Below, in pieces: positions 1 through 16,579 of a stretch of DNA of 64,000 nucleotides. The position numbers and the translations under genes were made by a program. Below the pieces are notes generated by a model, which was not told the DNA's origin, did no database searches, and saw only the letters and a program-made list of their open reading frames with translations. Position 1 is the first letter of the stretch; every line of letters begins with the position of its first letter. Source of the DNA: an uncultured Victivallaceae bacterium (GTDB taxonomy: Bacteria > Verrucomicrobiota > Lentisphaeria > Victivallales > Victivallaceae); assembly GCA_944392655.1 (NCBI GenBank), contig CALXXL010000011.1, positions 3,924 through 67,923 on the forward strand, written 5' to 3'.

Positions 1-54
1 TGGCCTACAACAATTACATTTACAGGAAATCAGAATTCTAAAACCAATAATTTT

Positions 55-642
55 ATGTTATTTATAATATGTTTGATAACATTAGCAGGAGGATATTTAT
101 GGTTTCTATGCTGGCGCAATATTACACGGCAGTTGAATAAAAAAATGTATATACTGGGGATGACATGCGTTGGAATTTTACTTGCAATCCCAATTTACCT
201 AACTCCAATGTCATGCTTTTTATCAACCAAAATACCATTAGATTATTTCTCTTCAAAAACAAAAATGTTTCATGATATGTATAACACGGAACAATTGGAT
301 AAAATTATAGCAACAACTTCAAAGTCTGGAATTGTCAATAAAGAATTATTTATTGGCAAAAAAGATTTCTTTGAAATAGAATTCGCAAGGTATAATATTG
401 ATCATTTTGACTATATATATTATTTCCCGACAGAAACTCCTAACCTAATAGCAGATAAAAAAGCAAATTGGATTAACATATATAACAATGTATGGCTAAA
501 AGAGTACAAAAATAAGCAAGATCTACTACTCAATTATCTGTTCATGATTTTATACATACTTGTTGCTGTTATATCAGCATCAATATATATATATGTTATT
601 CTAGGCAAGCAATTGTATTGCAATATTATTAAATCCTCTTAA
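55..642 (+). CDS. hypothetical membrane protein, immunity-like small gene
   Basis: 195-aa ATG ORF. Hydrophobic helices LFIICLITLAGGYLWFLCW, ILGMTCVGILLAIPIYL and LFMILYILVAVISASIYIYVIL. Hairpin terminator follows directly. No family recognised. Confidence 0.5.
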   Translation: MLFIICLITLAGGYLWFLCWRNITRQLNKKMYILGMTCVGILLAIPIYLTPMSCFLSTKIPLDYFSSKTKMFHDMYNTEQLDKIIATTSKSGIVNKELFIGKKDFFEIEFARYNIDHFDYIYYFPTETPNLIADKKANWINIYNNVWLKEYKNKQDLLLNYLFMILYILVAVISASIYIYVILGKQLYCNIIKSS

Positions 643-663
643 CAAATATAAATGTTGTATTTT

Positions 664-690
664 ACCGCCCACTGTCGGGCGGTTTTTTAT
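664..690 (+). terminator. Rho-independent terminator
   Basis: Stem CCGCCC(665-670)/GGGCGG(677-682), 6-nt loop, T6 run at 683-688. Confidence 0.7.
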
Positions 691-697
691 TCAATTA

Positions 698-850
698 TCA
701 GTTTAGCAGTTGCTTAATCCACCCGCCATCATAAAAACAATCTTTCGATTTATTCTTTCAAGCACTTGACGTTGGACGATAGTTATGATATACTTTAGTA
801 TGTAAGTGTAGCCGGAAACGAGTGGAGATGCGGACGTGATTCTGTGGGAC
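698..850 (+). repeat. junction module copy A (AGCA dyad + promoter + Rhs-derived leader)
   Basis: Aligns by eye at roughly 85-90% with 4078-4227. Its 3' ~100 nt also aligns with 2850-2933. Confidence 0.8.
766..794 (+). promoter_or_regulatory. sigma-70 promoter, extended -10
   Basis: TTGACG(766-771), 17-nt spacer ending in TGA, TATACT(789-794). Confidence 0.65.
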
Positions 851-1834
851 AACAGTTATGTATACGCCACCGACCCGAATAAAAACGTGCGGGTTAAGCG
901 GTTCCCGGATGAATGGATGGGCAGCGGCTGGATTGAAGAGTTTTTCGACTACAAACCGTTCGGCGAACTGAAAAACTATGTCCAGTCTCCGCCGCGCTTT
1001 ATGTTCAGCAGTGAGGAATACATGCCGGAAACCGGTATGTATCACTATCTCTACCGCGCATACAGCCCGTCTCTCGCCCGATTCATCACCCGCGACCCGA
1101 TTGAAGAAGCCGGCGGCGTAAACCTCTACTGCTTCGTAAACAATAACCCGATAAGCAGGTGGGACATATGGGGGTTAGGAGATGGCAGAGAAAATAATGA
1201 AAACACATATAAACTAATCCAACTCACCCCTGAGTTCTGTTGCGATGAGTCTAAGGGCTATAAAGCAGATAACTGCGTATATATATATTTCTATTTGGCT
1301 GAAAGCAAGTGGCCGCATTGGTCTTGGGCAGAAAATTCTGACAACAACTACATTTCACATGCAGCACTAGGAGTGAATAATGACCTCCCAATCGGATTTA
1401 ATCCTAAGCTGACAATCGTTCCCTTTGAGTGGAATTTTAGATGGGGGTTGGGAAGCAGTATTATAAGAGAAAACCGCAAAGACATTGTTGCAAAAATAAA
1501 ATGTTGCTGCTTTAAAAATGAAGAAATTACTGCAATAAAAAATTATATCGAAAGCTATTTAGGTGCAGAAACCTATAAAGGAAAGGAATGGCTGATAAAC
1601 ACTAATAATTGTGCTACTTTTGTTTATGATGCACTTGCAAATAAAGGAGAAAATCCTATTAAAGTTACATGGGATAGTGATTTTTTATCTTGGGTGAATA
1701 GCTCTTGGGGAAATGTAGCAATGCGTCCAGAAGAATTACGGAGGGGGGTAATGCAATCCCGTAATTGCAAATTGTACGAAAAGGCAGACTCAAAGGATTG
1801 GTCAGGTTCTTTAGCGTTATATTCAGGAGAATAA
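836..1834 (+). CDS. orphan Rhs C-terminal tip: end of RHS repeat-associated core plus polymorphic C-terminal toxin domain (possibly permuted papain-fold LRAT/NlpC-P60-like)
   Basis: GTG start immediately after an in-frame TAG. FSSEEYMPETGMYHYLYRAYSPSLARFITRDPIEEAGGVNLYCFVNNNPISRWDIWGL matches the Rhs core-end motif (YRYY-P-GRF-DPIG-GG-NLY-Y-N-P-DP-GL). The downstream ~215 aa are unrelated to the core and contain SHAALG followed later by NTNNCATFVYDAL. Confidence 0.8.
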   Translation: MILWDNSYVYATDPNKNVRVKRFPDEWMGSGWIEEFFDYKPFGELKNYVQSPPRFMFSSEEYMPETGMYHYLYRAYSPSLARFITRDPIEEAGGVNLYCFVNNNPISRWDIWGLGDGRENNENTYKLIQLTPEFCCDESKGYKADNCVYIYFYLAESKWPHWSWAENSDNNYISHAALGVNNDLPIGFNPKLTIVPFEWNFRWGLGSSIIRENRKDIVAKIKCCCFKNEEITAIKNYIESYLGAETYKGKEWLINTNNCATFVYDALANKGENPIKVTWDSDFLSWVNSSWGNVAMRPEELRRGVMQSRNCKLYEKADSKDWSGSLALYSGE

Positions 1835-1838
1835 TATT

Positions 1839-2579
1839 ATGAGTTTCAAATCAATTCGCTTCGGGGTACTTGGTCTCGCAGTGCTTGTGCTGTTCGGCAT
1901 GGGCTGTAGTACGTCAAAGGATGAGTATGTTGAACATATACATGTATTTGAAAGCAATTGGGCACCTATACAATTACAATATATGCCTGTTGGCAACAAT
2001 ACTATACTAACCCTGGTTGACCATCAAAGCGAATTCCCTCCGATTGTTTGTGGAGTTAATATTGGCCCAATTGTTACCTACGTTAGCTCGTTATACGGCA
2101 TTAGTATCGCCCCATTTACAGCCCTATATCAACATAACGTAGGAGTAGCTATTTCTTTGCTTTGGTCCGGTAGTAGTAAAAGCGCACTTAATGCTGGAGT
2201 GATATTAGCGCCACTGCAATTATCTTGTAATATGTTGAATGCGGGAATAATCGGAGGATTTTTCAGTCTATATCAAGTCAATTACGGTGTTTCATTGGGA
2301 TTATTCAATGGCAATTTAACAGGGAAAGGAGCAAATTACGGTCTGCAAACCGGACTATTCAATGTCTCCCACATTAACAAAGGACTATCTATTGGCGTTG
2401 TAAATTATGCAGATTCTAGAGTGAAAGGTATTACCGGTTATCAGATTGGACTGATCAATATATGCGACGGATTAGCAATGCCTTTCTTTATGTTTTCCGG
2501 AGGAGGCGAAGAAAAGCCAAATATCGACTGGAGTAGTGAAATAACAGAAGAAGGCGATGAAATACTAAGACTAAATTAA
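1839..2579 (+). CDS. repeat-rich lipoprotein, candidate cognate immunity protein
   Basis: AGGAGA RBS, start 4 nt after the toxin stop. Lipobox LFGMGC. Degenerate G-x-x-x-G-L-x-N repeats (GVSLGLFNG, GLQTGLFNV, GLSIGVVNY, GYQIGLINI). Confidence 0.6.
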   Translation: MSFKSIRFGVLGLAVLVLFGMGCSTSKDEYVEHIHVFESNWAPIQLQYMPVGNNTILTLVDHQSEFPPIVCGVNIGPIVTYVSSLYGISIAPFTALYQHNVGVAISLLWSGSSKSALNAGVILAPLQLSCNMLNAGIIGGFFSLYQVNYGVSLGLFNGNLTGKGANYGLQTGLFNVSHINKGLSIGVVNYADSRVKGITGYQIGLINICDGLAMPFFMFSGGGEEKPNIDWSSEITEEGDEILRLN

Positions 2580-2595
2580 ATGACTGACAGTGGTA

Positions 2596-2645
2596 AAAGG
2601 TGTTACCAGGTATCAGATTGATTGGATTGATTAATATCTGCAACG
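2596..2645 (+). pseudogene. remnant of the 3' end of a second copy of the lipoprotein gene
   Basis: aaaggtgttaccaggtatcagattgattggattgattaatatctgcaacg is ~80% identical by eye to 2424-2469 inside the 1839-2579 gene. It has no ORF context. Confidence 0.5.
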
Positions 2646-2737
2646 AAGAAAACGCAAGATATCACTGAAACAATGGACTAATCAAGAAACAAAGCCAAAT
2701 GATGTAATCTGTTTATCTCATCACCCCAAAAACACCA

Positions 2738-2770
2738 AGACCGCCCGCTCCATCGGGCGGTCTCTTTTCT
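2738..2770 (+). terminator. Rho-independent terminator (member of a repeated hairpin family)
   Basis: Perfect 10-bp stem AGACCGCCCG/CGGGCGGTCT, 6-nt loop, CTTTTCT tail. Near-identical hairpins occur at 3947 and 6413. Confidence 0.7.
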
Positions 2771-2779
2771 GTTCGATTA

Positions 2780-2933
2780 CAGGTTTAGCATTTACTAAAA
2801 CGCAAAAAACCAAGAAATCAAAATTTCCCAGTTTATCATCGACAGCCGCTTGAAGTTGAATGATATTTATGATATACTTTATTGTGTAAGAGTAGCCGGA
2901 AACGAGTGGAGATGCGGACGTGATTCTGTGGGA
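2780..2933 (+). repeat. junction module copy B
   Basis: TTTAGCATTTACTAAA dyad (2784-2799), a promoter, and the leader gtaagagtagccggaaacgagtggagatgcggacgtgattctgtggga, which is identical to copy A except for one base. Confidence 0.8.
2850..2878 (+). promoter_or_regulatory. sigma-70 promoter, extended -10
   Basis: TTGAAG(2850-2855), 17 nt, TATACT(2873-2878), preceded by TGA. Confidence 0.6.
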
Positions 2934-2963
2934 TAAAAATTCTGTTTGTGATGAAATAATTTC

Positions 2964-3719
2964 ATGGAGCAGCTGAATATGATGATAAACCGATTTAAAC
3001 TTTGGTGGCCGCAATATGTTGTTATAACAGCAGCAGTATTTTGCGTCGTTATCTATTTTGTAACCCTTATGAACCCAACCACATTTGCATCGTTAAGACA
3101 CAAATTATGGCACAATACACCACAATATTTTCAGATATTATGGGCTCGATACTGGCTTGCTGACGATGACATTCCCATGGATGATCTGCTTATAAGATTG
3201 GCTGCCATAACTGTTGCCCATGAGCCATGGCGGGAACCTTATAATGACCAAATTAATGACATTTTACTTGATAAGGTGGAATCAAATGATGTGCTATATC
3301 AAGAATTCGTTCTGGAAAATTATTTTAACGGATCTATTATTCCCAATAGAAGAGCTCTTAAGAAAATATATAATGACTTTCAAAAAGCTAAAGAGCATTA
3401 TAACAGCAATCATTATAAATATGATGTATATTGCCGTGATTGCTACTGGGTTGAACTATTCGGAATTCTCCTGATAGCAGAAAATTACTCTTCCCCTCGA
3501 ATAAAAAATGTGATTAATGATCTTCATACCTATTCGGATGCGTTTGATGGTATAACTTACTCAGACGATCACACCACCTCTTTTGTAAGGCTAAACAACC
3601 TTGTTTATGATAGTACAATGGTATACCATCTATCTCGAATTTTTAGTCAAAAACAGAAAGAGAGACTAGAGAAAGTTCGGCTTGAGAAAGGGATGAAAAA
3701 TGGAATCAGAAGCTATTAA
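2964..3719 (+). CDS. hypothetical N-terminally TM-anchored protein
   Basis: 251-aa ORF, one TM helix (YVVITAAVFCVVIYFVTLM). No family recognised. Starts at 2979 or 2982 are also possible. Confidence 0.55.
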   Translation: MEQLNMMINRFKLWWPQYVVITAAVFCVVIYFVTLMNPTTFASLRHKLWHNTPQYFQILWARYWLADDDIPMDDLLIRLAAITVAHEPWREPYNDQINDILLDKVESNDVLYQEFVLENYFNGSIIPNRRALKKIYNDFQKAKEHYNSNHYKYDVYCRDCYWVELFGILLIAENYSSPRIKNVINDLHTYSDAFDGITYSDDHTTSFVRLNNLVYDSTMVYHLSRIFSQKQKERLEKVRLEKGMKNGIRSY

Positions 3720-3936
3720 AGAAATTAAAACAAAAGAAGACAACTATAAACGCAAACTCAGGTCATGCAGCCATTGCGGCAGAACACTTTCTGTTGCGGC
3801 GATTTTATGCCCCAACTGTTTTAGATTGTTCTATTTCAATATTGCCTTAGCTATGGTCATAACAGCATTTTGGCTGTCAATTATAGCTCTGGTCATATGG
3901 CAAGCCTTCCTGATTATATCCTGGAGCTTAAACTAA
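3700..3936 (+). CDS. small zinc-ribbon membrane protein
   Basis: 78 aa. CSHCG-x12-CPNC zinc-ribbon motif followed by hydrophobic FNIALAMVITAFWLSIIALVIWQAFLII. Overlaps the upstream gene by 20 nt. Confidence 0.5.
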   Translation: MESEAIKEIKTKEDNYKRKLRSCSHCGRTLSVAAILCPNCFRLFYFNIALAMVITAFWLSIIALVIWQAFLIISWSLN

Positions 3937-3946
3937 TATTATAGCA

Positions 3947-3978
3947 AGACCGCCCGTTCCATCGGACGGTCTTTTTTA
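3947..3978 (+). terminator. Rho-independent terminator (repeated hairpin family)
   Basis: AGACCGCCCG/CGGACGGTCT stem with one mismatch, loop TTCCAT, T6 tail. Confidence 0.7.
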
Positions 3979-4077
3979 TTCAATTGTAAGTTTAGCATTT
4001 ACTAAATTAAATAAACCAACAAAAATAAACTTATATTTTATAATTTACTAAATACATCACATAATCTTCCAAACCAG

Positions 4078-4227
4078 TCAAATTCAGCATTAGCTTAACC
4101 AGGCTGCACCCATAAAAAATAATCCTCCAATTTATCTCTTTCAAGGACTTGACGTTGTATGATATTTATGATATACTTTAGTATGTAAGAGTAGCCGGAA
4201 ACGAGTGGAGATGCGGACGAGATTCTG
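4078..4227 (+). repeat. junction module copy C
   Basis: Aligns with 698-850 along its whole length, including promoter and leader. The leader GTG is changed to GAG at 4219-4221. Confidence 0.8.
4149..4177 (+). promoter_or_regulatory. sigma-70 promoter, extended -10
   Basis: TTGACG(4149-4154), 17 nt, TATACT(4172-4177), preceded by TGA. Confidence 0.65.
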
Positions 4228-4374
4228 CAAAGTAATAATTATAAAATTCAGCACCGTGATGCACGTAAAAAAGGTATGACTCATTATGCTGTTCCGCATA
4301 ATCGCAATATAGATTATTCTTGCTATAAATACAGCATTAACGTCAATGATGATTTTGTGTCTTTACTCATATAA
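4195..4374 (+). pseudogene. possible toxin-gene scar: startless open frame continuing from the Rhs-derived leader
   Basis: The frame is open for 59 codons after the TAG at 4192-4194: PETSGDADEILQSNNYKIQHRDARKKGMTHYAVPHNRNIDYSCYKYSINVNDDFVSLLI*. The start-codon position is mutated (GAG). Confidence 0.3.
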
Positions 4375-4402
4375 TATTGAAATTTAATCACAAGAACACA
4401 CA

Positions 4403-4921
4403 ATGAAGCTCTTAATTAAATTTTTATTTTTCCTATGGGATAATATCAACCGGCTGGCGGCAGTTTTCGGCGTTTTACTGGTTTATTTGCATATTGCGCT
4501 ATTCATTTATGTCCAGTATACTGCCATATGGTATATCCAGAATCCTCAGCCAGGTACTCTTTATCTTGGTAATTGCTCCGGCACACAGGCGCTTTTTAGT
4601 CCTATCTTTCAAACGTGGGCCAATTTGATATTATTCTCCACCTGGAGCGATATTGCCAGACGGCTGATTGCTCATGACTTCAGTTGGCATAAAATAATAA
4701 ACCGTTTCCTCCTCTCATGGCAATGTCTGCTCCCCGTTCTATTCCTTATCGCGATATTTACATGGGTTGAATACTGTTACAGTGGAATAAAAATTGAAGT
4801 CGGACACGGCAACATATTCATTGAAACTATTTACCCGTTTATCTGGCATCTTATTATAGGCACGGGAATCATAACGCTTATCTATTTCAGGAATAAACGC
4901 AAACAGGTGCATGCTTTATAA
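4403..4921 (+). CDS. hypothetical multi-pass membrane protein (family A)
   Basis: 172 aa, 4-5 hydrophobic helices. Clear paralog of 16675-17181 (WDNINRLAAVFGVLLVY..ALFIYVQYTAIWYI versus WDNINRLAAIIGILLAY..ALFIYVQYTATWYI). Confidence 0.65.
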   Translation: MKLLIKFLFFLWDNINRLAAVFGVLLVYLHIALFIYVQYTAIWYIQNPQPGTLYLGNCSGTQALFSPIFQTWANLILFSTWSDIARRLIAHDFSWHKIINRFLLSWQCLLPVLFLIAIFTWVEYCYSGIKIEVGHGNIFIETIYPFIWHLIIGTGIITLIYFRNKRKQVHAL

Positions 4922-4932
4922 AATAAATTATA

Positions 4933-5484
4933 ATGAGAGGATATAATAAAATGCAAAAGTTACATGTATGGATTATTTTGTCCGCATTACTGACAGTCAC
5001 GACAGGATGTTGGGAACGGGAAAAAGTCGTCGTCCCGGAAGAGGTAAGAAGCGTAATCGCCATTCCTTCCGGCTATGAGGATTTTGATACTTATCCCGGA
5101 TTCAGAGATTGGGATCGGATCCCTTTGAAATACCCATATCAATTACACCGTATTGATGGAAACCCACTTTGTGACTTACAACGACTTTCGTCTCCACAAG
5201 GTGTTACGATATTCGGAAATAAAACTACTATTTTAAGCGATATAGAAATCATTGCTCCGGCAAAGGATTTTGCCGCGGTTGAAATGTCATTGGAAGATAT
5301 AAATCAGGGAGATAAAAAATTTGCAATTCTTTCGTACGAATCAGGCGAATGTGAATTTTTCTTAACTGAAGAAGAGATGTTTGAACACCTGAAAAGTCAA
5401 TATAACATTGCCAGAGAAGAACTTACTTTTTATACTTTTAACCAGTTGTTCCAATACTTTGAGGAGATAAGTTTTGAAAGGTAA
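4933..5484 (+). CDS. hypothetical lipoprotein (family B)
   Basis: Lipobox LTVTTGC. The likely true start is the ATG at 4951, after GAGAGGA. Paralog of 15728-16261 (VPEEVRSVIAIPSGYEDFDT..PLKYPYQL versus VPEAVKNAIALPSGDHDFDT..PLQYPYQL). Confidence 0.65.
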   Translation: MRGYNKMQKLHVWIILSALLTVTTGCWEREKVVVPEEVRSVIAIPSGYEDFDTYPGFRDWDRIPLKYPYQLHRIDGNPLCDLQRLSSPQGVTIFGNKTTILSDIEIIAPAKDFAAVEMSLEDINQGDKKFAILSYESGECEFFLTEEEMFEHLKSQYNIAREELTFYTFNQLFQYFEEISFER

Positions 5485-5577
5485 TGATGGACGGCAGAAT
5501 TGACAATTTACACTTTGCGCAGAATATTTTATTAGATTTCACAGATCCAATCAACATATAACTATGGGAAGGATATT

Positions 5578-6381
5578 ATGCTTAAATTTTTATCGTCGAT
5601 TTTTTTGTCGTGGGCGGTTATGACCACCACAATACCGGCGCAGGAACTTATTTTTGATGCTCCGGCTACAGAACAGGAAGCTATGATCGGAATTTCCAAC
5701 TTTGCTGCAATAAATGGTGCGCTATATCTTTCTCTCTATTATACTGTCCCTGAAAATTTTCGTCTCGCATTGATGGCAGATAGTATTATATCTTACACTT
5801 ATCCATTAGTGGAAACTTGCCATAACAACCCGGATTTCCAGGCGAGATATGAGGAAACATTTATAAAACTGGCCAAATTAATTAACTCCAATAAGCAGAA
5901 ACTGATAAAAGCCGGTATTCGATTTCATGGTCTCTCTATTGATTTGTCAATGCAAGCCTTGAAAAGCATGTTACCTGATGAGTATAAAGAGCTTATTCCG
6001 GGAGATGAACTGGATCTTTCAGAACCGGAGGAAGCATTGTCGCAGCCGGAAATGCTGGTTGCAAATTATCTTTGCTATGTGGGAGGGAATTCTTTCATTA
6101 AGTTAGTTGATTTACTGGAAACTATGCTTGCCAATAAAGTTGACCGAAATGAAATTAACCGGCAAGTCCTTGACATCGTAAAGGATGATTGGCGCATTGC
6201 CGCGCAATATCAATTGGTACTCGATCCAACGTTAAAAACATTAGCAGATCATGAAACCAATTCCATGTTCATCGAGTGTATGACACAGACTTGGAACTCT
6301 ATTCCGGAAGATGCAAAAAAAGATATTTTAAGCGACCCATTATTGAAAACGTGGATCGAAAAATGGCAGGAACGTTTATAA
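5578..6381 (+). CDS. hypothetical secreted protein (family C)
   Basis: GGAAGGA RBS, signal-like N-terminus. C-terminal motif DPLLKTWIEKWQERL is shared with 12885-13715 (NPVVKLWLEEWQERL). Confidence 0.65.
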   Translation: MLKFLSSIFLSWAVMTTTIPAQELIFDAPATEQEAMIGISNFAAINGALYLSLYYTVPENFRLALMADSIISYTYPLVETCHNNPDFQARYEETFIKLAKLINSNKQKLIKAGIRFHGLSIDLSMQALKSMLPDEYKELIPGDELDLSEPEEALSQPEMLVANYLCYVGGNSFIKLVDLLETMLANKVDRNEINRQVLDIVKDDWRIAAQYQLVLDPTLKTLADHETNSMFIECMTQTWNSIPEDAKKDILSDPLLKTWIEKWQERL

Positions 6382-6412
6382 TCAAAATGTAAACAAAATT
6401 AAATTTATATAT

Positions 6413-6454
6413 GCAACAAGACCGCTCAATATTGGGCGGTCTTGTTGCATTTTA
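6413..6454 (+). terminator. Rho-independent terminator (repeated hairpin family)
   Basis: 13-bp stem GCAACAAGACCGC(6413-6425)/GCGGTCTTGTTGC(6436-6448), followed by ATTTT. Confidence 0.7.
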
Positions 6455-6462
6455 CCATGATG

Positions 6463-6568
6463 AAATTCAGCATTTATTAAATAAAAAGGTCTCCCATGAT
6501 AATCTTGCTATTTTCCTCAGATAACCACTTTACGCCGGAGAATATTTATGATATACTCTATTGTGTCG
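6463..6568 (+). repeat. junction module copy D (partial, leader diverged)
   Basis: Has the ATTCAGCATTTATTAA dyad region and the promoter core atatttatgatatactctattgtgt shared with copy B. Similarity is lost after ~6568. Confidence 0.6.
6529..6557 (+). promoter_or_regulatory. sigma-70 promoter, extended -10
   Basis: TTTACG(6529-6534), 17 nt, TATACT(6552-6557), preceded by TGA. Confidence 0.55.
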
Positions 6569-6675
6569 AGCATAAAACAATGTTGATACTTTCTTTATGT
6601 AACAGTATTTGACTGGCAAAATTATTAATCTAAAATAAAAATTTTTATAAAATCAAGATCAGTGATGGAGCAAAA

Positions 6676-7119
6676 ATGACTTCCGCCAAACAGCGCAAAA
6701 TAACGTTATGTATCTACATTGTTGCCGTTCTTACAGGAATAATAGTTTTATTGGCATTCTATGTCTTTCAGAAAGGACCGTTTCTGTATTATAAGTTTGA
6801 AGAGAATCTTTCTTACAATGATATAAGATTTGAAAAACTGACTGATGACGCCAGAGACAGCTGTTTCTATATCCCGGTTGAAAATAAAAATGACTGGATC
6901 AAGTACCTTAAAACGCCTCCTCCTGAATGGCTGACCCCAGATCGCTGTTGCGTAATTGCCGTTGGAGCACCGCTGAAGAGCAGATTTGATGTTCTATGCC
7001 CGGCACCAAACGGCAAAATGATTGAAATGTACTACTTCTATACCGTACTGGGCCACAAAGATGGCAATATATATGTATACAGCTTCAAAAATAAAAATTT
7101 CATGTGGGGGCCATGGTAA
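6676..7119 (+). CDS. hypothetical N-terminally TM-anchored protein
   Basis: 147 aa, TM helix LCIYIVAVLTGIIVLLAFYVF. No family recognised. Confidence 0.5.
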   Translation: MTSAKQRKITLCIYIVAVLTGIIVLLAFYVFQKGPFLYYKFEENLSYNDIRFEKLTDDARDSCFYIPVENKNDWIKYLKTPPPEWLTPDRCCVIAVGAPLKSRFDVLCPAPNGKMIEMYYFYTVLGHKDGNIYVYSFKNKNFMWGPW

Positions 7120-7302
7120 ACCGCCATTCAATGCGGATAATACCCATATTTTCTTAATTGAAAAATCCATATAGCTCAACTTCAGATGGTCTTTCTATTT
7201 ACTTACAACTTCATCACTATTATACAACCTCATTTTTGAATAAATGGGAATGCAGAATAAAGTAATTTATCATAGTATGAAACTGGTGTTAAGGAGCAGA
7301 TC

Positions 7303-7410
7303 ATGAAATTCAATCTCTCATTTCTGAAGTTTAAATGCGAAGCAAAATATCTGCTTTTGCTTCTGCTGGTTTGGCTGATTGCCAATATTTTGGCTCTAAT
7401 GCTTGGCTGA
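7303..7410 (+). CDS. candidate 35-aa hydrophobic small protein (below the ORF-track cutoff)
   Basis: AAGGAG(7291-7296), 6-nt spacer, ATG at 7303. Translation is MKFNLSFLKFKCEAKYLLLLLLVWLIANILALMLG*. Confidence 0.35.
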   Translation: MKFNLSFLKFKCEAKYLLLLLLVWLIANILALMLG

Positions 7411-7439
7411 TGACATAATTGAAACTGGGATAACAAAAA

Positions 7440-8000
7440 ATGAAAATATTCTGGCAAAGGATATACTGGTATTTAAATACTTTCTGGGGTAAAGTTATTA
7501 TTGTAATGATGTTCCCATTAAGTTACATACTCTTTTACTATGTTATAACTAATGATTACACATTATATATAGCGACAACAGTTCCGGTAAGTGAGGTGGA
7601 ATTCCGCATTGACAGCTCTAATTATGTCTTCATTCCGGGAGAAGGAATGTTTTCAGAAGAAGAATTACAGCATATAAAGCAGGATAACAGCAATAATAGT
7701 TTTAACTATTACAATAATGAGGAGTTCGCTCCATTCCCGTTTTACAGATGTTCAATGCCAGTTCCTAAAATTGCCACTATTTCTTTTGTGGACAGTAATT
7801 TGCAGCGGCATAAATTGCAAACAGAACTGAATTTACCGGAATTCTTCTCAGGAACTATAATATTCGTAATTATTGAGAAAAATGAAGAGTTCTATCTGAG
7901 GCAATTTACAAGTTGGAATCCGTCGTTGAAATTTATGACATATAGAGATATAGAAAAATTCATTGCGGAAATCAAAAAAAATCCGGACTGCATTATGTAA
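7440..8000 (+). CDS. hypothetical TM-anchored protein (family D)
   Basis: 186 aa, N-terminal TM helix. Paralog of 8207-8809 (ISFVDSNLQRHKLQTELNLPEFFSGTI..EFYLRQF versus VTFLDSNSKQHKLETELDLSSYFHGTL..EFSLKQY). Confidence 0.6.
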   Translation: MKIFWQRIYWYLNTFWGKVIIVMMFPLSYILFYYVITNDYTLYIATTVPVSEVEFRIDSSNYVFIPGEGMFSEEELQHIKQDNSNNSFNYYNNEEFAPFPFYRCSMPVPKIATISFVDSNLQRHKLQTELNLPEFFSGTIIFVIIEKNEEFYLRQFTSWNPSLKFMTYRDIEKFIAEIKKNPDCIM

Positions 8001-8105
8001 TTTATATAACTTCGGCAAAATAGCATTAGTAATTTTATCTTCCGGCACAACGCAGTATTTAAATCGTATCTCCAATAAAATAACCTGTTTATTTATGGCA
8101 GGCTA

Positions 8106-8134
8106 TTGACTATAAAAGATATTTATGATATACT
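8106..8134 (+). promoter_or_regulatory. sigma-70 promoter, extended -10
   Basis: TTGACT(8106-8111), 17 nt, TATACT(8129-8134). The core gatatttatgatatact is shared with copies B and C. Confidence 0.55.
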
Positions 8135-8206
8135 TCACTATATAAATAAATGTAGATTAGGTGCGATAAAAATTATATACATAATATGTAATAAAATCGA
8201 TCATCT

Positions 8207-8809
8207 ATGCACAATTCATTAAAAACATTTTTCAACAAACCTGATGCCGCCGGAAAAAGACGCATGAAATTCTGGCTGTTCAGCCTTATTATTGTTTACA
8301 TTCTAGTGATAGGCTACGCCTGTCTGCTAAATGGCAAGCCACTTTACAGGTATGAATATAACCTATTTCTGACTACCAATGTGCCAGAACAGCTGAGCGA
8401 CGTATTTTTCAGGTTTTACCCTGATAAATTCATGTACCGCCCGGAAACAGGTCTCATGGCGCTTATGCCAATGGCTGAGTCTGAAGATACTGCAACAGTT
8501 GAGATATTTCAAGAAAGATTTTATACCTCAGATAAAAAGTTTTCAACCGAAATATTTTCTCTGCTGCCCATGCCGCCTCCGAAGAAGATAATTGTGACCT
8601 TTCTTGATTCCAACTCAAAACAGCATAAACTGGAAACGGAATTGGATTTATCCAGTTACTTTCACGGCACATTAGGTTTAATAATTTTTGAAAACAATGG
8701 AGAATTTTCACTGAAACAATACATTACCAGAAATCCGTTTAAGTTCTCAGATTTAAATGATAAAGACGTTGCCGTTATTGTGAAGGACCTGGAGGAGCCA
8801 TGTCTATAG
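8207..8809 (+). CDS. hypothetical TM-anchored protein (family D)
   Basis: 200 aa. Paralog of 7440-8000. Confidence 0.6.
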   Translation: MHNSLKTFFNKPDAAGKRRMKFWLFSLIIVYILVIGYACLLNGKPLYRYEYNLFLTTNVPEQLSDVFFRFYPDKFMYRPETGLMALMPMAESEDTATVEIFQERFYTSDKKFSTEIFSLLPMPPPKKIIVTFLDSNSKQHKLETELDLSSYFHGTLGLIIFENNGEFSLKQYITRNPFKFSDLNDKDVAVIVKDLEEPCL

Positions 8810-9144
8810 ATATTGATGAATTGCGCAGCATAATCAGCGAGGAAACCGGTAATCCGCTTAACAAAATTAAACCGGATTCTAAATTGGTATCGGAATTGGG
8901 CATCGGCGGTGATGACGGTTATGAGCTGATGGAACTTCTTGCCAACAAATATAATGTCGACTTAAGCAATATTGACTTTTATCAGTATTTTGGTGATGAA
9001 TCAATTTCGCCTATATATCTAATTATGAGTTCAATTCTGGCATGGCTGGCATTTTTTAACTTAATTCCGCCGGGCGAATACCCGGATTTAACGGTAAATG
9101 ATTTGCAGCAAATATTATTAACAGCTCCATCAAAGGGGAACTAA
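8800..9144 (+). CDS. ACP-fold-like small protein lacking the phosphopantetheine Ser (DUF1493-like)
   Basis: SELGIGGDDGYELMELLANKYNVDLSNIDFYQYF resembles ACP helix II/III, but the DSL Ser is replaced. The overall pattern recalls DUF1493 proteins of enterobacterial Rhs/CDI islands (from memory). Confidence 0.45.
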   Translation: MSIDIDELRSIISEETGNPLNKIKPDSKLVSELGIGGDDGYELMELLANKYNVDLSNIDFYQYFGDESISPIYLIMSSILAWLAFFNLIPPGEYPDLTVNDLQQILLTAPSKGN

Positions 9145-9256
9145 TAATTGAGTGTTTTTGTAATTTAACAGCAGCTGTCTTTACTCCAAAAACAAATAAT
9201 TACAACATATTGAAAAAAATAATATTTAATCTCTATATAACAAGGCAGATGAGCAT

Positions 9257-9646
9257 ATGTTCCAGAAAAAACACACGGTTACTTTTGTTACAGTAGCGAT
9301 ATTCGGTGTAATAATAGGCTTGATGCTGACATTACTGTATAAAGAGGCGACCAATCCGGAAAATTCATATCGGGCAAAAAATGAAAAGTATTTAAAGGAG
9401 AGGTGCGGTGCAATTATAATAGAATATTATCAAAAATATGGCACAATGCCTGAGTCTCTGGAGGACGCTATGGTTTGCCTCGATAGAAGACTGCCTCATC
9501 GTGGAGATTATTATGGTGGCTCTACTTCATATGAAAGAATCAATGATCACTCATTTTCTTTTATTGCATACGGCAAAAACGAAAAATATGATTTCGGCAA
9601 GGGAGACGACATTGTTGTAACATACGATACGGACAAATGGCAGTAA
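9257..9646 (+). CDS. GspG-like (pseudopilin-fold) protein with degenerate class III signal
   Basis: N-terminal hydrophobic helix without G-1/E+5 (HTVTFVTVAIFGVIIGL). IIEYYQKYGTMPESLEDA and FIAYGKNEKYDFGKGDDIVV resemble the GspG globular-domain motifs. Confidence 0.45.
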   Translation: MFQKKHTVTFVTVAIFGVIIGLMLTLLYKEATNPENSYRAKNEKYLKERCGAIIIEYYQKYGTMPESLEDAMVCLDRRLPHRGDYYGGSTSYERINDHSFSFIAYGKNEKYDFGKGDDIVVTYDTDKWQ

Positions 9647-9720
9647 GTTTATAATAATAAATCGGGCAGGAATAACTTAATGTCCGTTATATTTCTTAAA
9701 CATAGATTGCAGGCAGTCTT

Positions 9721-10227
9721 ATGATAAAAAAATTAATTCATTCCGCATTGGCGATATTCGTGATTTTAATTATCGCTTTTTCTGTTATCCGTTTGAATTA
9801 TTATCACCGCCAGGCACAAGCCTTTTTTGCCGCGATTGAGCAGACACTGGCTCTGCTTAATGATGAAGAAATGGGGAAATTTTCCTTTTCTCTACCCCAC
9901 GGAAACAAATTATTGTTTTTCACCCCGTACTGGCATGTCGAGTTATCGAACTTGGAAATAACTGAAGACGAGGCAGATAAAATTAACCACTTTTTCAACT
10001 GCCAGGACAGTGAATTCGGACTTATGTGGCTTAACGCCGACAACGATATTCTGGCGGTAAAATATGCGCTGGATATTTTACCAGACCTCGATCTGGTCAA
10101 GGCGGCAGCATTTATGCATTGGCAGGGCAATCATGATGGGCAAATTACTGTATGTATTAAAAAGTCCGGCGATCTGTTTCGATTTGCGGAAGATTATGTG
10201 AACAACAACTCTGAATATCAGGAGTAA
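9721..10227 (+). CDS. hypothetical TM-anchored protein
   Basis: 168 aa, N-terminal TM helix ALAIFVILIIAFSVI. No family recognised. Confidence 0.5.
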   Translation: MIKKLIHSALAIFVILIIAFSVIRLNYYHRQAQAFFAAIEQTLALLNDEEMGKFSFSLPHGNKLLFFTPYWHVELSNLEITEDEADKINHFFNCQDSEFGLMWLNADNDILAVKYALDILPDLDLVKAAAFMHWQGNHDGQITVCIKKSGDLFRFAEDYVNNNSEYQE

Positions 10228-10230
10228 ATC

Positions 10231-10662
10231 ATGGATGCAACAACAATTCTATTCATATTAAATAAGACTATTTTGCCATATTATATCTTTTTTATTCTGG
10301 CATTCATGATTGGAATAATATGTTATCTGAAAAAACATGCGAAGAGCCGATTGAAATATTATAGCATAATTATGGCTGTAGGCGCGGCGCTCGGCATAAT
10401 ATTTATAAATTGCACCAATGCTTTAAAAGTACCATATTTCAGCGAGGAAACGATGTTTCTGGAATTTTTCAGTATCACTTTATTATGCTTTTTTTATTTA
10501 ATCGAAACTCTTTTCGGCGGTGGAATGATGGTTGTAATATCTATAATCTATGGGCTATATGGAGCTTTCCTGGGCGCGTTTGGCTGCTATATATATGAAA
10601 TTATAAATAAACGACGAGTTAATAAACAAGCCGTAACCACTCCCACCCCGCCTTCGGAATAA
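10231..10662 (+). CDS. hypothetical 4-TM membrane protein
   Basis: 143 aa, four hydrophobic segments. Starts 3 nt after the upstream stop. Confidence 0.55.
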   Translation: MDATTILFILNKTILPYYIFFILAFMIGIICYLKKHAKSRLKYYSIIMAVGAALGIIFINCTNALKVPYFSEETMFLEFFSITLLCFFYLIETLFGGGMMVVISIIYGLYGAFLGAFGCYIYEIINKRRVNKQAVTTPTPPSE

Positions 10663-10713
10663 GTCGGAAGTTTTAATATTATTACTGAAATCCCAAACGG
10701 GAATACAATAATA

Positions 10714-11706
10714 ATGAAAAAAATGTATAAAACATTAACCGGTTTGGTCTTGGCTGTATTGTTGATATTGACCAGCTGGTTAATACTTGATATTACTCAA
10801 ACATATAATAAGGTGAAGCAACTCGCAGTAAACGAACTTTTACAGGAAACCATTGTCTCTGAACAAAATCTGGTTTACCATACTTTGAATCAGGATCTTT
10901 TGAAATCTGCAAGTAATGACAATATATATCCTTTTACCATCTATTCCCCTTCCATTGATATGTTTTTATATCTGTTGAGCAAAGCCCCGCCGGTATTTAT
11001 GGCTCAACTCTTTGTATCACCTGACAGTGCATTATTGAAACCGGATGATATAACATCTTTTGACGGCCGTCGCATCTCAGCAATAAACTGGAGCGAAAGA
11101 TCATGTTTATATATTGATAATATCGCTAAAGATGAGATTACCTCGGGATTTTTTACTTACTTAATCGCGTTTTCATTTTATATGTTAATCATAGCCGCTT
11201 CTCTGATTTTCTGGCGATTCGGTATAAAAAAATATCTGCCGTGGATGTTAATATTATTGATTTTCCCCATGTTTGCGCTCTTTATACATTTTATTTATTT
11301 CGGAGTGCCCAAAAATATTTTCAGGTCGACGCCATTACCGACAGAAATGGAATATGCCGAGATTCAAACGGTTGTTTCCAACGCACAACAAACTGGAATG
11401 CATGATTGCAGTTACGACAGAATATTTATCGGAGCTCCGCCGATGTTCAACGGTCGTTTTGCCAGAATAAAGTTATCCGATTTCGACTACTGGTATATTG
11501 CGGAAAGCGAACTGACGCCAATGCTTGATAAAAGCGCTTTGGCGCCGTCCGGATACAAAAATATTACACATGTCTATTACCCGGTATGGCGTAATATATT
11601 ACTAATGTTGACCTTTTATGTAGCAGGTGGAATCGGTTTTAATATTGTATTATGCCTAATCCTGTCTTTAAGCAGACGAAAGGAGAATACTGCTAAAAAT
11701 GAATAA
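10714..11706 (+). CDS. hypothetical multi-pass membrane protein
   Basis: 330 aa. N-terminal TM, central TM cluster (FFTYLIAFSFYMLIIAASLIFW, LPWMLILLIFPMFALFIHFIYF) and a C-terminal TM. Confidence 0.55.
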   Translation: MKKMYKTLTGLVLAVLLILTSWLILDITQTYNKVKQLAVNELLQETIVSEQNLVYHTLNQDLLKSASNDNIYPFTIYSPSIDMFLYLLSKAPPVFMAQLFVSPDSALLKPDDITSFDGRRISAINWSERSCLYIDNIAKDEITSGFFTYLIAFSFYMLIIAASLIFWRFGIKKYLPWMLILLIFPMFALFIHFIYFGVPKNIFRSTPLPTEMEYAEIQTVVSNAQQTGMHDCSYDRIFIGAPPMFNGRFARIKLSDFDYWYIAESELTPMLDKSALAPSGYKNITHVYYPVWRNILLMLTFYVAGGIGFNIVLCLILSLSRRKENTAKNE

Positions 11707-12511
11707 TGTAATCAACAAACAAAATCTCACTAAGCATCCTTTTATTGATGAATTGTTCTACAGTTTCCGTATCCGTAAGATTTTGCATAAACGCGATATC
11801 TTCACCGTGAAAAACAAATGGCGGGAAATCGGAATAGACTTTGACACCCAGTGTGTGCCGATATTCAATATTTTTGAATATTTTTGCGCCTGGAATTCTA
11901 TCGCATATTATCCGGACGACGAATTCAGCTGGATTGCAAAAAGCTATACAATTGACATGTTTGAGGTCAGTATTCTTATGGATTTGGAGGAACAATTCAA
12001 CGTCGAAATAGAGTTTAAAGAAAATATGACGATGGCGGATATTGTCCGCAGTATTTTGTCCGCTATGCCTCCTGACAGCAACAGCTCTATTCAGCAAGTC
12101 CAACTTAAAAAAGCCAATATCCCCAAATGGGACTCAAAGCTGGGTATCGTTGGGGGAATAATTTTCACCGCTGCCGGTGTGTTTTTTACTCTTACTTTAA
12201 TTACAACTAAAACCACCGCTCCGCATGACCACTTATTACCGTACAAGTATATATTAAGTATTATCACTATTCTATTCGGTATCGTAACCCTGCTTTACTA
12301 TTACCCCCGTAAACGTAAATCACTTTGGCTGTATTTGATTTATGGAGCACAATTTATTTCTGGAATAATTTTTTGCTATTTATCTTTTCAATACTATCAT
12401 ACGACATTGCTGAAAATACTCATGTTTCTCGCAGGAATTGTTTTCATTTGTGCAGGAATATTCCAGATATACCGGTTGGCGCATAAAATTTATCCCCCGA
12501 TAACAAAATAA
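11699..12511 (+). CDS. ACP-like domain (no Ser) fused to a 4-TM C-terminal domain
   Basis: TIDMFEVSILMDLEEQFNVEIEFKENMTMADIVRSI aligns with the ACP motif DSLDTVELVMALEEEF..I, with Asp at the Ser position. The C-terminal half is hydrophobic. Confidence 0.5.
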   Translation: MNNVINKQNLTKHPFIDELFYSFRIRKILHKRDIFTVKNKWREIGIDFDTQCVPIFNIFEYFCAWNSIAYYPDDEFSWIAKSYTIDMFEVSILMDLEEQFNVEIEFKENMTMADIVRSILSAMPPDSNSSIQQVQLKKANIPKWDSKLGIVGGIIFTAAGVFFTLTLITTKTTAPHDHLLPYKYILSIITILFGIVTLLYYYPRKRKSLWLYLIYGAQFISGIIFCYLSFQYYHTTLLKILMFLAGIVFICAGIFQIYRLAHKIYPPITK

Positions 12512-12539
12512 TAATATCCTGATTATTATTGCGGGACTA

Positions 12540-12568
12540 TTGACAAACGATTTCATTTATAATATAAT
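12540..12568 (+). promoter_or_regulatory. consensus sigma-70 promoter
   Basis: TTGACA(12540-12545), 17 nt, TATAAT(12563-12568). Confidence 0.6.
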
Positions 12569-12884
12569 TAACTATGGAGACTAGAGAACAAAGTATGAGC
12601 TGTATACGGTATGATTAAAATATTAATACCAACCTCAATTAACACCTCGACAATTTGTGGATGGTACAATGTCAAGGCGTTATCGCATAGTATATATACC
12701 GGCATCCGCCCCAGACTGAATTCAGCGACCAGTCTCAAGTTACAGGATCCGGCAATATATGGGCAAAGTTCTCTCTTGGTCAACCGGATCTTTACCTGGA
12801 TATATTTATTGAACGCAATTGTTTTGCTGGGATGTTTATTTATTTTACACATAAAAAAATTAATCTGTAGGGAGGAGTTTTATA
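12569..12884 (+). promoter_or_regulatory. long (~310 nt) structured 5' leader, possible cis-regulatory RNA
   Basis: No convincing ORF. Nested stems 12699-12707/12745-12752 and 12713-12718/12730-12735. Alternative pairing 12746-12752/12784-12790 is followed by CTTTA. Strong RBS GGGAGGAG at 12870-12877. Confidence 0.3.
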
Positions 12885-13715
12885 ATGAAATATTGTCTTG
12901 CCGGTCTACTGGTTTTGTTCTCACTCCAGTATCTTATTCTGTATGGAGCGGACATAACGCATTTTGATGAATACAATACCGGAGAAATGGTATCATTGGA
13001 TGAGTTTAAAACCGAATACAGCCAAATATTTTTACAGGCGCTGTCGGACGGGGCTATAAGCATGCCATATCCTGAATCAACTGCCGGAAACAGCGCGTGT
13101 ATAAATATAGGCTTCAGTATAGGACTATTATACGGCGCCAATCAGATTATGCCAGAGTGCAAAGAAGCATATATGCCGGTATTGGAAAAGTTTGCCGGAT
13201 TGCTCGAAAACGAAAAGGTAAAAGCGGAATTCGCCCCGCTTATGGAACATAAATTATCCGTTGCGATTTGTACTTTTTTCATCCTTAATGAAATGATGCC
13301 GGAGGATTATAAATGCCCGTTTGAAATCCCGGAAATCGGTTTCGTGGGAAAATCGGTATTAGCCGGATATACAGATATTACCCCGGCATTGGCCAGATAT
13401 ATCTATTTGGACAGTTATAATTTTGACCGGAAACTAGATGCGCTTGAAGCTGTAGCCACCGGCAAATATGACGAATATCAGCAAATTGCGGTTGAAACCG
13501 CAATGAGCTATCTGAATTTCGCCGCAAAACTGCAAATGATATTTGATCCGGAATGCGAACGGTTCGATTATGACGGCACGGAATCATCTTTTAAGATTAT
13601 TATGAAATTAGCCTCAAAAAACGAAGTGATACAGAAAGAGTTGGATGCCAATCCAGTAGTAAAATTATGGTTGGAAGAGTGGCAGGAACGGCTGGCGTCA
13701 CAACCGGAAGAATAA
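12885..13715 (+). CDS. hypothetical secreted protein (family C)
   Basis: 276 aa, signal-like N-terminus. C-terminal WLEEWQERL motif shared with 5578-6381. Confidence 0.65.
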   Translation: MKYCLAGLLVLFSLQYLILYGADITHFDEYNTGEMVSLDEFKTEYSQIFLQALSDGAISMPYPESTAGNSACINIGFSIGLLYGANQIMPECKEAYMPVLEKFAGLLENEKVKAEFAPLMEHKLSVAICTFFILNEMMPEDYKCPFEIPEIGFVGKSVLAGYTDITPALARYIYLDSYNFDRKLDALEAVATGKYDEYQQIAVETAMSYLNFAAKLQMIFDPECERFDYDGTESSFKIIMKLASKNEVIQKELDANPVVKLWLEEWQERLASQPEE

Positions 13716-13727
13716 AAGGCGTTTGTC

Positions 13728-14240
13728 ATGAAACAGCAGAAAATACTGCTATTGTCTTTCCCTGAAGCCGACGTCCCACGACATTTTATGTATAAATTAC
13801 CGGTTATTGGGTATAAGGCAAAAGCTCACAGGTATATCAGTGCTATTTTAAAGCAGCGAAATGAGGAAATGCTGACTGCTTGGGATGAGTATCCTATCGA
13901 TAAAGATAAATTACAAGAGATACGTAGCCTCATAAAATCTATGCGGGGGTTCTGTAATGATATTTTTCTGCCGCAGGATCCATTTATTGTTCTGGCATAT
14001 TCCGCAGTAGGATACGACGATTTTTATGAACCGGATATTATTAACGCAATATGCAGAATATTCGGCGATAAATTGCTGATGAGTAAATTAGACAGAGTGG
14101 TAAAATCTCTTGTCTGCACTGGAGGGCTGCCTCTCGTAGAACCGGCATTGCAAGATTCGTTCGGTGAAGCGCTGAATTTTATATCAGCATGTTGCAGTGG
14201 AGCAAATACCGACCTTGTTGAAGAATATTCTACAAGATAA
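13728..14240 (+). CDS. hypothetical cytoplasmic protein
   Basis: 170 aa, no hydrophobic segment, no family recognised. Confidence 0.55.
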   Translation: MKQQKILLLSFPEADVPRHFMYKLPVIGYKAKAHRYISAILKQRNEEMLTAWDEYPIDKDKLQEIRSLIKSMRGFCNDIFLPQDPFIVLAYSAVGYDDFYEPDIINAICRIFGDKLLMSKLDRVVKSLVCTGGLPLVEPALQDSFGEALNFISACCSGANTDLVEEYSTR

Positions 14241-14304
14241 AATATATTGTCAGCAAAATGCGTGACAACAATTACGAATCTTTAATCAATAATGAAATAA
14301 GAAT

Positions 14305-15207: not shown

Positions 15208-15235
15208 GAACTATCAAGTTAATCGGAAAATAGAG

Positions 15236-15703: not shown

Positions 15704-15727
15704 ATATAAACTATAGAAAGATATAAA

Positions 15728-16261: not shown

Positions 16262-16579
16262 ACGCCGCCACCCCCTGCCGGAACAAAATGACAAATATAC
16301 CCTGACCGTCAGCAGACAATATGTATCTTTTTCATCAGAGCATGCACTGTTCTTGTTGAAGCTGGAAAACGCTCTCAATAAAGCAGGTATAGACTATCAT
16401 TATTAATAGGCTCAGTAATCTGTCCCGAAACAACGACTAATGATATGCCGGAAGAACCATATTAAAAAATATTTATATCACTAATAGCCCGGCGTTTTTA
16501 AATCTAATTAAGCTATGCCTAAATGGTATTAAATCCTGAAAAAAACAATGTTTTCAGTCTGTTATTGTGACTTAATATA

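Follow-up and report, generated by a model that had tools for sequence, protein, structure and literature searches.

Rhs main/orphan arrays formed by C-terminal displacement are the closest described systems to the locus reported here (Jackson 2009; Poole 2011, PMC3150448; Koskiniemi 2014; for Snodgrassella alvi, Steele 2017, PMC5727410). The orphans described from these arrays usually lack initiation signals of their own or are co-transcribed from upstream. Orphan cassettes of Rhs and contact-dependent growth inhibition (CDI) systems are usually described as silent reserves, which are used only after recombination into the main gene. In Salmonella Typhimurium, internal promoters of rhs start upstream of the PxxxxDPxGL motif and yield a short core-plus-toxin product together with immunity (Starsta 2020, PMC7043789). 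They lie inside the core open reading frame (ORF), 89 nt upstream of the point where the motif is encoded, and use a CTG start; the short product was proposed to act like a type II toxin-antitoxin (TA) module stabilising the locus (PMC7043789). The locus analysed here lies in a 64,000-nt stretch of contig CALXXL010000011.1 (hereafter the window) from an uncultured human-gut Victivallaceae bacterium, where a module with a dyad and a promoter is repeated in front of several gene cassettes. The repeated module is very probably the ~200-bp inter-cassette junction of an Rhs polymorphic-toxin/immunity array.

In every feature that can be judged from sequence, the locus corresponds to an Rhs main/orphan array formed by C-terminal displacement. 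As in the described arrays, a large main rhs gene and its immunity gene are followed by truncated, core-homologous rhs fragments with their own immunity genes, the same toxin takes the main or the orphan position depending on the strain, and orphaned immunity genes persist after toxin loss. The locus differs from them in that a module of non-coding DNA, made up of terminator, dyad and promoter, joins the core at a single constant codon and recurs before many cassettes, in that the cassettes are insulated from one another by predicted terminators, and in its phylum, Lentisphaerota. A literature search for Rhs loci of Victivallis and related members of this phylum returned no paper. The predicted promoter stands upstream of a PxxxxDPxGL-type motif, and Salmonella-like expression of a short product from it is possible. 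Unlike the Salmonella promoters, it is non-coding DNA that has taken the place of the upstream core, its distance to the motif is ~350-380 nt, and the predicted start is GTG with GGAG.

The repeated module and the rhs core

The initial annotation had noted near-identical promoters at 766, 2850, 4149, 6529 and 8106, and all five were recovered by pattern search and consensus scan. In the consensus scan each consists of a TTGACG-like -35, a 17-bp spacer and TG-n-TATACT, with scores of 9-10 out of 12; they have the form of sigma-70 extended -10 promoters and are predicted to be active. Exact copies of the 16-mer ATATTTATGATATACT are found at 2863, 4162, 6542 and 8119, a copy with one mismatch lies at 779, and at up to three mismatches the 16-mer has 9 matches against 1.45 expected. 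The 29-mer GTAGCCGGAAACGAGTGGAGATGCGGACG has 3 exact copies against 0 expected. Repeat finding delineated three 97-nt copies (765-861, 2849-2945 and 4148-4244) that are 85-89% identical, as well as a 68-nt family of five.

The alignment of nine junctions, taken from the window and from three further arrays, gives a consensus ~200 nt long. It starts with the terminator hairpin, ATTCAATTA-AAG, the dyad and 12-20 variable nt, continues with AAAAA-AATC-T-CAATTTATCTCTTTCAAG-AC, TTGACG, a 17-bp spacer and TATACT, and ends with TTAGTATGTAAGA(T), then (C)AGCCGGAAACG and onward. Mean column identity is 64%, and the invariant columns fall nearly all within the -35 to -10 region (TATGATATA-T). Homology runs through the entire ~200 nt, from the terminator to the core remnant. 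The similarity thus goes beyond AT-rich background, as had been proposed; the repeat itself stands, while the length first assigned to the module does not, since it really reaches from terminator to core remnant.

The upstream terminator hairpins had been described as one sequence family, and scanning and folding at 664, 2738, 3947 and 6411 agree with this, with stabilities of -14 to -31 kcal/mol. The terminator scan flagged 664, 2738 and 3954; the hairpin at 6411, which has a weaker T-run, was not flagged.

Gut-metagenome contig L001 (121 kb) carries the same locus (window position = L001 position - 9165) and reaches further upstream. The main rhs gene is located at L001:31-6165, ~3-9 kb upstream of window position 1; it encodes 2044 amino acids (aa) with RHS_repeat, TEN_YD-shell and a DUF6973 toxin tip. 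It is followed by a 161-aa gene, a 576-aa orphan (the 'long' orphan) and a 365-aa immunity-like gene, whose 3' end is ORF 55-642 of the window.

What the initial annotation had missed is that the 3' part of the module is rhs core coding sequence, and that the region appears to be an array of Rhs orphan toxins and immunity genes. In copies A-C the GC-rich 3' third has exactly the sequence of rhs core coding DNA (QPETSGDADVILWD; GTAGCCGGAAACGAGTGGAGATGCGGACGTGATTCTGTGGGA). At L001:5242 in the main gene and L001:7652 in the 'long' orphan the core DNA reads ...TTTGGCAGCCGGAAACGAGTGGAGATGCGGACGTGATTCTGTGGGA, and the module is identical to it from AGCCGG onward, with TAG in place of the core CAG. 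Homologs P0002, P0003, P0006 and P0028 read ...FVWQPETSGDADVILWDNSYVY across the same stretch, and the core remnant begins at codon Q of FVWQPETSGDADVILWD. Beyond the module, window 810-1155 is 85-94% identical to main and orphan cores. ORF 836-1834 begins V-ILWDNSYVYATDPNKN and matches Rhs_assc_core TIGR03696 with 74.5 bits (cutoff 32.5). Its core part ends with NNPISRWDIWGL (1145-1177), a PxxxxDPxGL-type motif past which homologs diverge. Protein search returned ~30 short relatives (71-96% identity) that have in common only the first ~114-145 residues and carry different C-terminal domains. The variable domain of the window orphan (1178-1834) has no Pfam match and no sequence match in PDB.

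All promoter-fused copies have an in-frame stop (TAA of GTAAG, sometimes TAG as well) immediately 5' of the core remnant, within a leader of ~10-20 nt between promoter and remnant. After the stop, the reading frame first offers a start codon at the GTG of DAD-V-ILWD; GGAG lies 8 nt upstream of it, and core codons supply both. GGAG at 824-827 and GTG at 836 are probably the translation signals of the orphan ORF. The copy at L005:13053 has ATG for GTG; it was given little weight as start-codon evidence because it is a decayed 32-codon remnant.

Contig L134 (2110-2290) belongs to a lineage with ~57% aa identity, and the core homology of its orphan Rhs C-terminal fragment again starts at VWQPE. 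This orphan is preceded by TTGACT, a 17-bp spacer and TATACT, and the ~130-nt leader is unrelated. Reuse of the breakpoint with an unrelated leader hints that VWQPE may mark a functional domain boundary. The 'long' orphan, which begins at a Met inside the core (MSRLATL), represents a second class of fixed breakpoint.

Four related arrays (L004, L005, L126 and L127) occupy the same chromosomal site, between an SNF2 helicase gene and a cluster resembling type II secretion system (T2SS) genes. They differ widely in length and content, and each has an equivalent main rhs. All related contigs are from gut metagenomes. Copies of the promoter::core junction were found in L004 (4), L005, L127 (2) and five further human-gut contigs, and none in the viral contigs searched. 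At least seven different toxin ORFs that are intact (254-355 codons) stand behind this junction, as do at least seven sets of genes without a toxin. The module marks the boundary between cassettes of an Rhs orphan array and is used again from cassette to cassette and from strain to strain. In the window, pattern and position weight matrix (PWM) scans detected no copy of module or dyad in the 38 kb of housekeeping DNA.

Toxins and immunity genes change position among these strains. The window orphan toxin corresponds to the C-terminus of the main Rhs in L005 (72.7% over 348 aa), and the DUF6973 toxin with its 161-aa immunity gene stands at the main position in L001 and among the orphans in L004. 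In L005, homologs of the 172-, 183- and 267-aa genes downstream of module C come after P0020, a toxin that is intact; the 267-aa gene stands after the main rhs in L127 and after orphan toxin P0028 in L126. Because homologs accompany intact toxins or main rhs genes in other strains, the best reading of the genes downstream of modules B-E is as orphan immunity genes whose toxin was lost and whose promoter was retained.

One joint between strains can be traced to the module. Window 3948-4180 matches L004 5579-5809 (92%) and window 4114-8095 matches L004 13193-17135 (96%); since the two segments overlap in promoter C, a crossover maps inside the promoter of the module. Another strain joint lies just after the terminator (L130 and L133 compared with window 683). 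Among the breakpoints examined between strains, the positions are the terminator end, the inside of the promoter, the core fragment or a boundary of toxin and immunity gene, and none was mapped to the dyad. The module had been suggested to be a recombination site. It behaves as one in the sense of a homology tract, with a crossover inside the promoter; a site-specific site is not supported, as neither a recombinase nor a breakpoint at the dyad was found.

From 5' to 3', a junction consists of the predicted terminator of the previous cassette, one or more dyads, a predicted near-consensus sigma-70 promoter with an extended -10, a stop-bearing leader and the core remnant. Such a module would make each cassette its own insulated transcription unit. 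With a promoter for each cassette, immunity genes could be expressed even at a long distance from the main promoter and downstream of terminators, and the cell may also make short core-plus-toxin proteins, as from the promoters inside Salmonella rhs. The module and the ~345-bp core fragment would jointly supply flanking homology for swap, deletion or duplication of cassettes by general recombination, the promoter and core remnant serving as 5' homology and the terminator, dyad and promoter of the next junction as 3' homology. Compared with the usual silent reserves, the cassettes here carry a predicted strong promoter, a core-derived Shine-Dalgarno (SD) sequence with GTG start, and a terminator. 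The promoter is kept even where the toxin is deleted, which points to selection for constant immunity expression, a defence against the toxins of neighbours. The flanking homology would give a simple physical basis for rapid cassette turnover among human-gut Victivallaceae strains, and the module offers a compact sequence signature for finding such arrays in metagenomes.

Several points weigh against this interpretation. Promoter, terminator, SD and GTG are predictions at the level of consensus, and the start codon is ambiguous, since gene callers sometimes picked a downstream GTG. The strong conservation of the promoter could reflect recent gene conversion and not selection. The role of the dyad is left without account. 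Some strain breakpoints fall outside the modules, such as window 5570 compared with L126, which is a toxin/immunity boundary. Overall, the observation made in the initial annotation is confirmed, and its interpretation is partly supported.

The dyad and alternative explanations

The dyad pattern TTYAGYAKTWRYTNAA has five exact matches (702, 2784, 3991, 4083 and 6466), all in junctions, and 7 matches at up to one mismatch against 0.51 expected. Its consensus TTNAGYA-NN-TRCTNAA is a 7+2+7 palindrome in which the half-sites are conserved and the central 2 nt are free; for the four modules of the window the form TTYAGYA-NN-TRCTNAA was derived. Its forms include TTTAGCA-GT-TGCTTAA, TTTAGCA-TT-TACTAAA, TTCAGCA-TT-AGCTTAA, TTTAGCA-GC-TACTAAA and TTTAGCA-CC-CACTAAA, and the palindrome is perfect at L004:5621 (TTTAGTA-TT-TACTAAA). 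Dyads come as single copies, as groups of three (window 3991-4098) or as groups of five (L001 6768-6952). Tandem Repeats Finder detected no tandem array in the multi-dyad regions, and thus the dyads are not a simple 46-bp tandem repeat.

Two of the proposed dyad sites were revised. The supposed fifth dyad at 8022 shares only AGCATTAG, is below the PWM threshold and does not align. The dyad at 3991-4006, taken for a truncated junction, opens a series of three dyad units that belong to a single extended junction; this extended junction is also present at L004 5579-5809, with dyads at 5621, 5666 and 5712, and at L127 8010-8292. The reported distance of 60-63 nt from AGCA to the -35 was reproduced in four modules (61, 63, 63 and 60 nt). 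All copies are homologous also across the 60 nt from dyad to -35, so that this distance was probably inherited by common descent and would not be an independent sign of a spacing constraint. The earlier argument from fixed spacing therefore holds against chance similarity, given the ~200-nt homology, and loses its force as independent evidence for a regulator.

Two junctions show the dyad in other arrangements. The junction before the 'long' orphan (L001:6727-6974) contains five dyads at 37-46 bp spacing and no module promoter. At L004:5579-5980 the module promoter is spliced into the middle of a dyad array, right after its -10 box.

The dyad looks like the binding site of a dimeric protein and can be regarded, tentatively, as a candidate operator, at which a dedicated dimeric transcription factor would co-regulate all cassette promoters. 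This is possible as a layer added to the junction reading, with which it is compatible. The palindrome, perfect in L004, has half-sites that are conserved across at least 15 instances while the centre varies (TT, GT, GC, CC, TA), and it forms a conserved island between non-conserved spacers, with no tandem repeat seen. Its matches are far above chance and confined to junctions. The dyad centre is located at about -90.5 to -93.5 from the inferred transcription start, and a position about -90 upstream of the start is used by class I activators. The dyad is, however, separable from the promoter: it is missing at promoter E, L004:8195, L004:11605, L129 and L132, and the five dyads at L001 6768-6952 precede an orphan without the module promoter. 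In the related species L005 it is degraded (TTTTACATTTACTTAA) or absent, the spacings of 37-46 bp are not helically phased, and Pfam and NCBIfam revealed no regulator gene in or beside the array. The candidate operator makes regulation of the orphan cassettes directly testable.

A more ambitious proposal would add function to both parts. A dedicated factor acting on the dyads, up to five per junction, would switch the cassette promoters on or off and so place the orphan cassettes under common control as a bank, and the short proteins starting at WQPE or VILWD would be functional, either as TA-like addiction modules or as plug-plus-toxin for the main Rhs. This is rather unlikely as a whole; if true, the array would be a cassette system that has a regulon of its own and works through homology, without an integrase, in a gut phylum that has been little studied.

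It is less likely still that the modules are inert relics, an ancestral junction copied by duplication or C-terminal displacement and kept only because the copies are young. Homology over the whole module and the near identity of many strain copies would fit such relics, as would the commonness of the promoter hexamer pattern in AT-rich genomes: the promoter-only pattern, run across genome contigs, gave more than 120 listed matches in unrelated genomes, mostly Clostridia, and none of the matches listed is from Victivallaceae. The hexamers alone are generic in such genomes, and the number of matches is roughly at chance level by our estimate. Against relics, divergence has brought the mean column identity among paralogous copies to ~64%, yet no variation is seen in TATGATATA-T and most of the -35, and the promoters are intact where the toxin or the whole core remnant is deleted (modules B-E and L005:14951). 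L134, at 57% aa identity, repeats the promoter form and the VWQPE core start with its unrelated leader.

Site-specific recombination at the junction or at the dyad near the cassette 3' end, with integron-like or rAID-like capture, is very unlikely. The array does resemble the Bacteroidales recombinase-associated acquired interbacterial defence system rAID-1, as both consist of co-oriented short low-GC genes of human-gut bacteria, many of them orphan immunity genes, with conserved intergenic motifs. It also resembles integrons in its serial co-oriented cassettes split by a recurrent short element; the dyad stands at cassette 3' ends, like attC, and cassette content varies greatly among strains. 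Pfam, however, detected no tyrosine or serine recombinase in the array ORFs or the immediate flanks, which are the SNF2 helicase gene upstream and T2SS-like genes downstream, and no examined strain breakpoint mapped to the dyad; it is for these two reasons that a site-specific recombination site is improbable. Unlike rAID-1, in which a tyrosine recombinase is present, the array is attached to a main rhs gene and retains intact toxin fragments, its promoters are of the sigma-70 and not the Bacteroidales type, and the phylum is different. Identity with an integron was rejected: intI was not found by Pfam, no attI or attC is present, and the 16-bp dyad is too short for attC. The attC consensus is RYYYAAC/GTTRRRY, and the dyad as read from the sequence does not match its R''/R' elements. 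Integron cassettes are typically promoterless, whereas each cassette here has its own promoter, and exchange apparently proceeds by homologous recombination.

That the module is the end of a small mobile element inserted in the rhs core (a miniature inverted-repeat transposable element or insertion sequence with an outward promoter), or a structured leader RNA, is extremely unlikely: the dispersed copies with sharp right-hand boundaries at a fixed core position would suit an insertion, but the left flank is always the end of an immunity gene and never the upstream half of the core, so that the modules are not simple insertions, no terminal inverted repeats or target duplications were seen, no copies at non-rhs loci with target-site duplications were seen in ~150 kb of related loci, viral contigs contain no copy, Rfam matches stay below threshold, and the leader folds like shuffled sequence.

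Regarding RNA, Rfam found no family at gathering score in window 1-27 kb; sub-threshold matches were rteR (35 bits against 72) and Hrs1 (25 against 56). A structured leader or riboswitch was rejected because three leader folds were no better than shuffles (z = +0.35, +1.10 and -0.05). The rteR match at 609-686 overlaps the terminator at 664 and is most likely just the terminator hairpin. An origin of the module as a copy of the main promoter was also rejected, since the regions upstream of the main rhs in L005 and L126 have no module or dyad.

Cassettes and other features of the array

With the module taken as the cassette boundary, the left part of the window would read as five transcription units, PA-PE, whose features are collected in Table 1.

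Table 1. Positions of the array, its predicted transcription units and junction features in the window.
Feature	Position	Strand	Details
Co-oriented orphan toxin/immunity array	1..25225	+	Composition; right edge from L127 synteny resuming at 25225
Predicted unit PA	766	+	Orphan Rhs C-terminal ORF 836-1834 and gene 1839-2579; terminator 2738
Predicted unit PB	2850	+	18-codon remnant; genes 2964-3936; terminator 3947
Predicted unit PC	4149	+	51-codon dead ORF; genes 4403-6381; terminator 6411
Predicted unit PD	6529	+	Genes 6676-8000 (147 aa, 186 aa); no following terminator identified
Predicted unit PE	8106	+	Gene 8207 onward; first genes 8207..9144 (200 aa; 114-aa DUF1493 protein)
Predicted intrinsic terminator of preceding cassette (after gene 55-642)	664..683	+	-14.2 kcal/mol, T-run
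Dyad A	702..717	+	TTTAGCA-GT-TGCTTAA; PWM score 21.5; pattern match
Predicted promoter A	766..794	+	TTGACG, 17-bp spacer, TG-n-TATACT
rhs core fragment	809..1177	+	TAG at 809-811; ends NNPISRWDIWGL (1145-1177)
Variable C-terminal toxin domain of orphan Rhs ORF	1178..1834	+	218 aa; homologs differ here
Candidate cognate immunity gene, cassette A	1839..2579	+	Starts 4 nt past toxin stop
Predicted terminator of cassette A	2738..2763	+	Scan and fold, -20.1 kcal/mol
Dyad B	2784..2799	+	TTTAGCA-TT-TACTAAA; PWM and pattern
Predicted promoter B	2850..2878	+	TTGAAG, 17-bp spacer, TG-n-TATACT
Core remnant B	2893..2933	+	13 core codons left; remnant ORF 2920-2976 ends 2 nt before ATG 2979
Two genes of cassette B	2964..3936	+	251 aa; 78 aa with zinc ribbon; no toxin
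Predicted terminator of cassette B	3947..3972	+	Repeat finding, scan, fold
Three dyad units	3991..4098	+	3991 strong, 4037 weak, 4083 strong; 46-bp spacing
Predicted promoter C	4149..4177	+	Crossover zone 4114-4180 between two L004-like segments
Core remnant C	4192..4227	+	GTG changed to GAG; then 51-codon dead ORF
Three orphan immunity-type genes behind promoter C	4403..6381	+	172, 183, 267 aa
Predicted terminator of cassette C	6411..6450	+	18-bp stem, -31.2 kcal/mol
Dyad D	6466..6481	+	TTCAGCA-TT-TATTAAA; PWM and pattern
Predicted promoter D	6529..6557	+	-35 TTTACG; without core remnant
Predicted promoter E	8106..8134	+	TTGACT, 17-bp spacer, TG-n-TATACT; without dyad, without core remnant
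Dyad sequence			TTTAGTATTTACTAAA

Gene 1839-2579, the N-terminus of which is 58% identical to the ORF after the main rhs of L005, is the candidate cognate immunity gene of cassette A. The genes of cassette B (2964-3936) have no homologs in the other arrays compared. Remnants identical to core remnant C are present in L004, L130 and L133. The dead ORF after module C matches the 3' end of a P0020-like toxin weakly (23% identity, E = 0.06). In unit PE, the DUF1493 protein (8800-9144) has weak acyl-carrier-like similarity, and its gene overlaps the end of gene 8207-8809 by 10 nt; a pair homologous to these two genes occurs in L005 and L126.

The -35 of promoter D (6529-6534) is TTTACG in the window and TTGACG in the L004 and L126 copies, which are otherwise 96-99.5% identical; TTTACG may be a strain-specific down-mutation. 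The array contains further strong intergenic promoters at 16580-16608 and 12540-12568, with flanks that have no homology to the module. One of the two has TTGACT, a 17-bp spacer and TG-n-TATAAT and has ATAACTATGATATAAT in common with the module core, and the other has a perfect TTGACA, 17-bp spacer and TATAAT.

GC content is 38% in the array (window 1 to ~25.2 kb) and 47% in the rest of the window. The array genes are all on the forward strand, and almost none has a Pfam match. Searches with Pfam and NCBIfam over ~45 array ORFs yielded little beyond a zinc ribbon, DUF1493, ankyrin repeats and Rhs_assc_core, and neither a recombinase nor a regulator was found among them. The remaining 38 kb encodes housekeeping functions (T2SS/pilus-like genes, DNA ligase, glutamate synthase, glutamine synthetase and aspartyl-tRNA synthetase), and the T2SS ATPase is 74-75% identical to proteins of named Victivallaceae metagenome-assembled genomes. 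At the right edge of the array (25225-25800) GC content jumps from ~36% to ~47%. From 25225 on, the window is again syntenic with L127, the array of which is short, and a small hydrophobic ORF (25277-25753) precedes the convergent T2SS/pilus-like operon.

An ankyrin-repeat protein is encoded inside the array at 22018-22860 (Ank_4, E = 2.5e-25); among the immunity proteins of polymorphic toxin systems, the ankyrin-repeat fold is a recurrent one. Paralogous gene pairs are found at 4403-4921/16675-17181, 18389-19348/19457-20413 and 21550-21849/23340-23639, with 75-92% DNA identity, which suggests duplicated or independently acquired immunity variants.

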